Below, piece by piece: positions 12,167 to 12,460 of a DNA stretch of 15,411 bases (the stretch's first letter is position 1; each line of letters starts with the position of its first letter). Source of the stretch: a virus (lineage: Duplodnaviria; Heunggongvirae; Uroviricota; Caudoviricetes); the IMG/VR virus record IMGVR_UViG_2802429249_000004, positions 1-15,411 of that record. One strand, given 5' to 3'. The notes beneath the pieces were generated by a model. It had not been told where the DNA came from. It did no database searches and saw only the letters and a list, made by a program, of their open reading frames with translations. Position numbers and translations under genes: made by a program.

Positions 12167-12460
12167 AAAGTGTCAAGTTGAGCAGCTTGCCAGGTTGACA
12201 CTTTACACTCTGAACGCGAAAAAGTGTCAACCTTGCTGGAAGCCGCGCCATTACTGGCCTTGTACCATATTCACCACGTCAAAAAACCGAAAAAATCGCG
12301 AAAAGTGTCAAGTTGCCATGCTTAGAAATGCCAGGGATGGTTAAGTTTTGTTAAGGTTTTTCCCGAAAAAGTGTCAAGTGTGTCAATCTGCGATATTAAG
12401 ATTTATTAAGGCCTTAAGCCGGAAAGTGTCAACCAGCCCCCTAAGATTTCCTAAGGTGTA
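12167..12460. repeat. Degenerate tandem repeat array: six to seven copies of AAAGTGTCAA(G/C) plus three copies of TAAG(A/T)TTTNNTAAGG
   Basis: GTGTCAA-core copies at 12167-12177, 12195-12204 (inverted), 12221-12232, 12302-12312, 12368-12378 (with adjacent 12380-12386) and 12423-12434. TAAG units at 12342-12356, 12395-12409 and 12442-12456. The last three GTGTCAA sites are each followed by a TAAG unit, forming ~55-66-bp composite units. Confidence 0.7.

Follow-up and report, generated by a model that had tools for sequence, protein, structure and literature searches.

A repeat-box array beside a winged-helix gene in an E. coli satellite island, a candidate cosB-like packaging-recognition site

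The DNA analysed here is a stretch of 15,411 nucleotides of a virus of the class Caudoviricetes (positions 1 to 15,411 of IMG/VR record IMGVR_UViG_2802429249_000004), the whole of which is called the window. It is a chromosomal satellite island of E. coli resembling the phage-inducible chromosomal islands (PICIs), with int, alpA, a primase with its own origin, an array module and defence cargo. The array module, which is the subject of this work, is made of the gene of a 175-aa winged-helix protein, an array of short repeated boxes directly 3′ of this gene, and an open reading frame (ORF) of 60 aa. As judged from the sequences compared below, the array is very probably a cluster of binding sites for the adjacent winged-helix protein. 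Beyond this, it is given about an even chance of being a cosB-like packaging-recognition site of the satellite, bound by an island protein derived from a small terminase subunit (TerS).

The components of the module are the following, with coordinates in the window.

11633–12160, + strand: helix-turn-helix (HTH) gene encoding the 175-aa protein.
12167–12176, + strand: box 1, AAAGTGTCAA(GT), seven bases past the stop codon; a stop-adjacent box is kept across genera.
12193–12204, − strand: box 2, inverted, AAAGTGTCAACC on the − strand; forms a convergent pair with box 1, 18 bp apart.
12221–12230, + strand: box 3, AAAGTGTCAA(CC).
12236–12262, no strand: element 3, CTGGAAGCCGCGCCATTACTGGCCTTG, 27 bp, conserved in first-clade arrays (those with boxes 3′ of the gene).
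12302–12311, + strand: box 4, AAAGTGTCAA(GT).
12320–12335, + strand: unit 0, GCTTAGAAATGCCAGG, the fourth unit of its kind, in which the 10-bp tandem pair is degenerate; kept across genera.
12340–12356, + strand: unit 1, GTTAAG-TTTT-GTTAAG-G.
12368–12386, + strand: box 5 (AAAGTGTCAAGT), directly followed by box 5b (GTGTCAA).
12395–12411, + strand: unit 2, ATTAAG-ATTT-ATTAAG-G.
12423–12432, + strand: box 6, AAAGTGTCAA(CC).
12440–12456, + strand: unit 3, CCTAAG-ATTT-CCTAAG-G; its 3′ end doubles as the ribosome-binding site of the 60-aa ORF.
12465–12647, + strand: 60-aa ORF, with a conserved C-terminus YQWxKPxxxRR (phrog_1561/7271).

An earlier note, made from this sequence without database searches, had described at least six copies of the box, one of them inverted, in two subtypes, together with three TAAG-type units, the last of which was said to run into the Shine–Dalgarno sequence of the ORF at 12465. 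Counting and shuffling confirm this description. Six exact copies of AAGTGTCAA are found, on the + strand at 12168, 12222, 12303, 12369 and 12424 and on the − strand at 12195, all inside 265 bp (array 12167–12432) and none elsewhere in the window; the mean expected by chance is 0.13 copies and none of 200 dinucleotide-preserving shuffles gives six. Both 3′-flank subtypes, CAAGT and CAACC, are present, and an additional seventh box core, GTGTCAA, is located at 12380–12386. The TAAG-type units correspond to three copies of TAAGWTTTNNTAAGG (at 12342, 12397 and 12442), for which the shuffle mean is 0.07 and three copies are reached in 0 of 200 shuffles, and the TAAGGTG of the last one ends seven bases 5′ of the ATG at 12465. 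The repeats are thus real. They do not form a strict tandem array, since the spacings between + strand boxes (54, 81, 66 and 55 bp) are irregular and point to a cluster of dispersed sites. The inverted box pair is kept in relatives, and the sequences ATGCTTAGAAATGC(C) of unit 0 and CCTAAGATTTC of unit 3 are each common to six diverged arrays. An Rfam search of the window gave zero matches to known RNAs.

The protein encoded just upstream has homologues in Enterobacterales only, all of them unnamed, and literature searches found no description of the protein family or of the boxes. Its AlphaFold model (predicted local distance difference test 87.7, built from a 46-sequence alignment) shows two domains, a winged HTH of the Nu1/Xis/Cox class at residues 1–44 and a compact alpha-beta-beta-beta-alpha domain of orphan fold at residues ~63–166. 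The Nu1-like HTH attributed to this protein in the earlier note is well founded: among PHROG families phrog_57 (terminase small subunit) scores best, with E 1.4e-6, and the first ~40 residues are 42–49% identical to TerS proteins of the Nu1 family. Among phage proteins, the first 44 residues match best two TerS of the Nu1 type, that of Citrobacter phage phiNP (E 3e-5) and that of Serratia phage BZS1 (E 2e-4); a further protein search, with the N-terminal 51 aa as query, yielded nothing but fragments from the window protein's own family. The recognition helix, GVSRQTVYDW, is nearly invariant among homologues. In a structural comparison of the winged helix, whose figures carry no label, the values are 6.5 for Pukovnik Xis, 6.0 for the lambda Nu1 DNA-binding domain, 5.9 for TerS 7lxs, 5.8 for BldC, 5.7 for P2 Cox and 5.0 for RppC.

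The module, comprising the 175-aa protein, the box array and the 60-aa ORF, occurs in at least eight enterobacterial genera, the boxes being conserved 3′ of the orthologue in Escherichia, Pantoea, Yersinia, Raoultella, Rouxiella, Serratia, Rahnella and Enterobacter. At the loci of the seven genera other than Escherichia, the protein is 35–63% identical to that of the window and the gene is followed in all cases by a noncoding stretch of 450–900 bp. Related arrays mostly contain four to seven boxes, with one to three in a few of the most diverged, and obey the consensus (A)AAAGTGT(C/A)AA(CC/GT). In most cases a box adjoins the stop codon and another, inverted, comes 20–45 bp further; the spacers between boxes cannot be aligned across genera. 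The 60-aa ORF usually lies 3′ of the array. In the E. coli group good conservation extends over the entire region, and invariant columns account for 67% of positions in boxes versus 42% in spacers. Of 5426 complete E. coli genomes, 168 have a match to this region, and a scan of genome contigs with a single sequence gave four loci.

The module is tied neither to one type of integrase nor to one type of replicase. In the island of E. coli ABU 83972 (L014) the integrase is 30% identical to that of the window and the HTH protein 92% identical, while the island of E. coli UTAK-5 (L001) has a RepA-family helicase yet an identical HTH protein. Altogether, D5_N, DUF927, Toprim-DUF927 and RepA replicases are found alongside the module, with the array unchanged. 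Three copies of the module are present in the single genome of Pantoea stewartii ATCC 8199 (L003, L004 and L005); two of them (L003 and L004) have boxes of the variant GTGTAAAC in a much shorter array that ends in a terminator-like hairpin. A different situation is that of the metagenomic contigs L020 (11170–11560), L035, L039, L051, L060 and L093, where 23–26 dense AAAGTGT(C/A)AA boxes lack any homologue of the HTH protein in their vicinity; the box appears to be used there in an unrelated or very distantly related way.

The link to packaging comes from the phages that match the winged helix and from a second clade of elements using the same box. Phages of the phiNP/BZS1 family have lambda-like packaging genes (TerS, the large terminase subunit TerL, W and portal) and a lambda-like cos, in which GGGTCC (cosQ) is followed by GGGCATTGCGCGCC (cosN) and by three GGTAACA repeats directly 5′ of terS; about 60 related viral contigs share this layout, and the annotated 12-nt end of BZS1 is GCATTGCGCGCC. 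In a TerS sub-branch with the helix GVDRKTVTRW, the sequence between cosN and terS contains five TGTCCCA boxes. Because arrays of 7-bp boxes thus lie between cosN and terS in this family, the winged-helix subfamily is understood to read 7-bp boxes of cosB. When viral contigs were scanned for GTGTCAA in inverted pairs, 105 loci emerged, 55 of which have a homologue of the DNA-binding domain at most 150 bp from a box. The second clade consists of nine of these loci (L022, L056, L067, L073, L075, L098, L105, L110 and L116, the last cut at a contig end), the proteins of which start with LMSVSQYAKHAGMSRQALYSW and have dense boxes 5′ of their gene. At eight of these nine loci, L056 being the exception, the GTGTCAA boxes begin ~50 bp after a phiNP-type GGGTCC (cosQ) and GGGCATTGCGCGCC (cosN), and at the eight loci where the HTH gene is present they stop just before it, which is the cosB position.

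The gene of locus L073 encodes a full-length TerS of the Nu1 family, which aligns with phiNP TerS along 196 aa (39% identical, E 6e-42) and has a helix, GVTRQTIYDW, that is almost the GVSRQTVYDW of the window protein. No ORF of at least 100 aa follows this gene, so TerL is absent there, and the same absence of TerL after the TerS-derived gene was found wherever this was checked (L067 and L073). Of a TerS of the L073 type, L067-type proteins retain the first 61 residues and the window protein ~40; hhalign joins the first and second clades at 97.9% probability. Standing where cosB is expected, beside a phiNP-type cosQ–cosN, GTGTCAA can be read as the cosB repeat of terminase-derived proteins. 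The eight elements with this layout would accordingly share the cut site of the helper and not its recognition site, and they are probably satellites of phiNP-like phages. They are situated in early regions of P2-like prophages or in DUF927 islands, usually after two paralogous genes (173 and 275 aa). A further connection is provided by PICIs of the L217 type, where a homologue of the 60-aa ORF (..YQWKKPDRLRR) follows a Nu1-like TerS gene with a lambda-like cosQ at its 5′ side; in L304, a related contig, lambda cosQ and cosN are both present in full.

Besides the boxes, the array contains units that are 10-bp tandem duplications of a hexamer, as in unit 1, usually 6–9 bp 3′ of a box. In 20 non-redundant related arrays, 26 exact hexamer repeats are found at offset 10 versus 1.9 in shuffles, and 0–8 at other offsets (6–15). 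The hexamer varies between units (GTTAAG, ATTAAG, CCTAAG, GGTAAG, GGTAAC, GATCCG, TGATAA and others) while the two halves of one unit match, and the units ATGCTTAGAAATGCC and CCTAAGATTTC are kept across genera. In the Serratia island L008, the GGTAAC units resemble both the GGTAACA cosB repeats of phiNP/BZS1 and the GGTAAC pairs 5′ of their cosQ, a likeness suggesting that the tandem hexamers may be sites for the small terminase of the helper.

Element 3 has a wider distribution. It is conserved in L001, in the E. ruysiae island L002, in L014 and in the E. coli EC11 island L126, and is looser in L005, L007, L009, L010 and L011. In Chi-like phages a 36-bp match of 86% lies between TTGTAACC/GGTTACAA repeats, at ~440 bp from their cos end, with the parts ordered as in the array of the window. 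In two of these phages, YSD1 (L123:2508–2545) and FSL SP-088 (L124:2470–2740), a noncoding region 200–520 bp from the left cos end, beside genes of an HTH regulator and a primase, contains these repeats (TTGTAACC/GGTTACAA), the motif AACGCG and element 3, arranged as in the island array; the function of this region appears to be undescribed in Chi-like phages. Element 3 is also found in the origin of an L217-type PICI (L217:1070–1320), where GGTAGAC iterons enclose it (CCTGAAACCCGCGCCATTACTGGCCTG), and, in L247 and L254, in a phage intergenic region 5′ of a TerS gene that is of the Terminase_2 type by eye reading of the translation. The origin of the window itself is without element 3 and retains CTGAAAC only, so that each island seems to have element 3 a single time, placed in its origin or else in its array. 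Its presence among the repeats of different elements, in both origin and packaging settings, leads to its reading as an architectural or host-factor site; it may be such a site or a site of cleavage. Compared by eye with hairpins, with sigma-54 promoters and with the sites of IHF, CRP and DnaA, element 3 gave no convincing match, and neither a loose fit to the degenerate Fis pattern nor the 12 of 22 dyad-symmetric positions is significant. An exact 14-mer scan for element 3 returned mostly chance matches.

From these elements a course of events can be proposed for the satellite. During growth of a helper phage, the island protein would use its DNA-binding domain, derived from a small terminase, to coat the AAAGTGTCAA boxes. 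Its C-terminal domain, or a pairing with the small terminase of the helper, would then draw the helper terminase to the island instead of to phage DNA, and island DNA would be packaged into the helper capsid as a result, in the manner of a lambda-type cosB or of the private cosB of Rpp-type PICIs. We infer all three steps, namely the binding of the boxes by the protein, the recruitment of the helper terminase and the resulting packaging of the island. What the comparisons themselves show is that the repeats are real and conserved and always accompany this protein family, that the DNA-binding domain resembles that of terminases, and that in sister elements these boxes stand beside a cosQ–cosN at the position of cosB. 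The cut could be made at a cosN of unrecognised type or by headful cutting, or else the module could serve another purpose. Of the options put forward in the earlier note, packaging recognition or hijacking is the one best supported, through the boxes at the cosB position in related elements.

Several observations weigh against this reading. Concerning the DNA, a cosN of the lambda, P2/186, phiNP/BZS1 or Chi type was found neither in or near the array, nor elsewhere in the window, nor in the complete ABU 83972 island, and neither GGGTCC nor GGACCC, the sign of a cosQ, exists anywhere in the window. A cosQ is likewise missing from the complete ABU 83972 island and, together with cosN, from beside the arrays of the window's clade. 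The array lies 3′ of the gene, whereas in cosB–terS pairs the boxes are 5′, and element 3 is also a component of a PICI replication origin. Concerning the protein, the alignment to TerS is limited to residues 3–41, so that it is not a full-length small terminase, and its C-terminal domain has weak matches resembling a double-stranded RNA-binding domain and no TerS, Rpp or viral structural match in PDB and BFVD. A PDB sequence search with E up to 1 found nothing related, although RppC (6hn7_A) is included in PDB. The fold class also comprises Xis, Cox and BldC, which are regulators or excisionases binding repeats. Finally, the whole protein has zero homologues in phage and plasmid collections. 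Contig ends are uninformative as packaging termini, with no terminal repeats in the IMG/VR contigs.

A regulatory function is unlikely, albeit with points in its favour. According to this alternative, a regulator of the Cox/Apl/BldC kind would polymerise on the boxes as an operator array and control the 60-aa ORF and the cargo, its own gene or helper genes. The array directly precedes the 60-aa ORF and the cargo, and one strand carries all three, which agrees with this alternative, as does the second clade, where the boxes lie 5′ of the protein's own gene as in an autoregulatory operator and some loci fall within P2-like early regions. However, a promoter scan revealed no sigma-70-like promoter in the array. 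The TTGACA inside each box, which had made the boxes themselves candidates for promoters, has by our own reading no −10 partner at the right spacing, and this candidate was rejected. Six or seven sites together with three further conserved motif classes in 300 bp exceed the usual need of an operator, a pure operator leaves unexplained that second-clade boxes adjoin cosQ–cosN, and the closest sequence relatives of the protein are terminases and not regulators.

An unlikely variant of packaging is that the array is a composite adaptor, each repeat unit combining a constant box for the terminase-derived island protein with a variable 10-bp hexamer pair (xxTAAG, GGTAAC, GATCCG and others). Each pair would correspond to the cosB repeat read by the small terminase of a different helper, such repeats being GGTAACA in the phiNP/BZS1 phages. 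A single island could in this way recruit the terminases of several helpers. Such an adaptor might need no cosN of its own and might rely on a cut site not recognised here, perhaps element 3, or on headful cutting.

Quite unlikely is a replication accessory site, that is, a second origin or an enhancer comparable with crr of P4, in which the boxes would be iterons and the protein a factor that binds the origin. The architecture of the array is iteron-like, its distance of ~4 kb from the origin is comparable to that of P4 crr, and element 3 belongs among the GGTAGAC iterons of the L217-type origin and is missing from the origin of the window; moreover, the homologous order of inverted box pair, AACGCG, element 3 and further box stands beside the primase gene of Chi-like phages. 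Against this, the expected replication origin of the island is at 7960–8320, a noncoding region with at least eight GGTAGAC iterons, often in the form GGTAGACRGTTGGTAGACAG, and its GC of 31.5% falls to 15% in the lowest 40-bp window. The array has the GC of the window mean (43%) and a lowest 40-bp window of 30%, hence no AT-rich unwinding element, and its boxes differ from the iterons of the origin. The absence of an AT-rich core and the constancy of the module while replicases switch argue against a second origin matched to the replicase. Element 3 is likewise found 5′ of the TerS gene of L247/L254 (read from the translation) and near the cos end of Chi-like phages, and the protein has no features of an initiator or helicase loader. 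A second origin was therefore rejected as the main explanation, and the second replication locus suggested in the earlier note is disfavoured.

It is highly improbable that the boxes are recombination-directionality sites of an Xis, arm sites for the integrase in attP or the centromere of a plasmid-type partition system, since the array is 2.8–4 kb from attR in L014 and L001, the integrase arm repeats differ from the boxes (GGGGGTA in UTAK-5, GGTGTACAC in ABU 83972) and the module is 92% conserved where the integrase is 30% identical, which rules out att-arm and excisionase sites, while a Pfam scan of ten window proteins, in which partition itself was not directly tested, gave no ParA-type ATPase. 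The arm-type repeats, near attL and attR and 2.8–4 kb away from the array, are tandem pairs with a period of ~11 bp, TTGGGGGTACTTTTGGGGGTAT at the thrW islands and of the GGTGTACAC type at the yicC–dinD island; they are located at L001:19009–19031 and in L013 (upstream of int), and at L014:3160–3235 and 16515–16535.

The surroundings of the module are those of a PICI-type satellite: a P4-type integrase, alpA and a primase-helicase with an adjoining origin are present, and no virion structural genes were detected. The other features of the window are the following.

1–1215: P4-type integrase.
2208–2453: AlpA.
2532–3332: AntA-like protein.
6149–7954: D5_N/DUF5906 primase-helicase.
7960–8320: replication origin, outside the array, with GGTAGAC iterons around AT-rich DNA, 3′ of the primase-helicase gene.
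8326–9152: ProQ/FinO-like and PerC-like genes.
13425 onward: variable cargo, the first gene of which encodes a DUF262 protein.

The ORF of 512 aa at 3325–4863 is probably no gene, as annotated relatives place small genes (YlcI/YnfO family, Icd-like) on both strands there. Near-identical islands occupy thrW in two E. coli strains, UTAK-5 and EC11, and the yicC/dinD interval in ABU 83972. The HTH gene is the last gene of the post-origin operon, directly before the variable defence cargo. The genes just 5′ of it differ between islands and look like virion parts: in Rouxiella and Serratia islands (L006:5541–7933 and L008:4816–7932) they are Dit-like, E217_gp41-like and Gp138_N/Apex-like tail-tip genes, and in E. 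coli EC11 (L126:13334–14005) the corresponding gene encodes a DUF2213 protein. This variability suggests different modules for manipulation of the helper, and the gene order as a whole agrees with the packaging reading.

On the other side, UTAK-5 and E. ruysiae have an extra gene inserted exactly 3′ of ..CCTAAGGTGT, a position that makes the right edge of the array the border between the conserved core and swappable cargo. The cargo of the window (13425–15411) consists of a DUF262-type protein (phrog_2598, with a weak ParB-like match) followed by an ORF of at least 309 aa cut at the window end; at the corresponding place, relatives have GapS1, OLD-like nucleases or an ATP-dependent nuclease. 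Beyond an 85-aa ORF on the minus strand, a remnant of a second orf60-like 3′ end (..RPYQWRKPNRLRR*, with upstream stop codons) at 13054–13104 looks like a scar of cargo-cassette swapping at a hotspot.

These results bear on a large group of islands, since many enterobacterial int–alpA–primase islands have no recognisable packaging genes. In the study of EcCIMP1, ‘Type C’ PICIs were described as abundant yet not confidently annotatable because key modules are missing, and as perhaps defective (PMC11773190). If the module is a packaging tag, it would explain the spread of widespread islands carrying defence genes. It would also complete a graded series that leads from a full satellite TerS, through a TerS DNA-binding domain with a new tail, to the window protein, and it would supply a simple sequence marker (GVSRQTVYDW together with AAAGTGTCAA boxes) for such satellites and their helpers. 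The conserved array edge is also a site of cargo gene exchange.

The module can be compared with several known systems. P2 Cox, 186 Apl and BldC have the same small winged-helix fold and bind runs of direct repeats, but they are single-domain proteins with sites overlapping promoters or attP, neither of which is seen in the window. P4 possesses two repeat-bearing cis sites, ori and crr, 4.5 kb apart, and the island also has two such sites ~4 kb apart; in P4, however, the iterons and their binder, the alpha protein, are common to both sites, whereas the sites of the window bear different repeats and the array is independent of the replicase. With lambda cosB/Nu1, including the phiNP/BZS1 version, the module shares the winged helix in sequence and fold class, several boxes of 7–10 bp in both orientations beside the gene and, in sister elements, GTGTCAA boxes between cosN and the gene. 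It differs in that the array is 3′ of the gene with no cosQ or cosN beside it, the protein is without the C-terminal two thirds of Nu1, and the array adds 10-bp tandem hexamers and element 3.

Among satellites, those of the SaPI type (Staphylococcus aureus pathogenicity islands) supply a TerS as recognition subunit together with the recognition site and borrow the large terminase of the helper. Locus L073 conforms to this plan: it combines a full TerS and GTGTCAA boxes with a cosN of the helper type, and its TerS gene is followed by no large ORF. The window protein, by contrast, retains the DNA-binding domain only and no cut site is recognisable. The EcCICFT073 island, for its part, was shown experimentally to keep the cosN and cosQ of its helper with a private cosB and Rpp (Fillol-Salom et al. 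2019, PMC6739421). The window resembles such Rpp-type PICIs as an island with int, alpA, primase and origin, with a TerS-like DNA-binding protein encoded between origin and accessory genes and a putative cosB-type site unlike that of any known phage; unlike them, it has no lambda cosN, and its protein shows no sequence relation to the solved RppC chain, is longer and has another C-terminal fold. Even without a cosN, homology to Rpp or a full TerS, the array module is, by this analogy, as apt as not to work in the way of Rpp with cosB or of a satellite TerS with its site.

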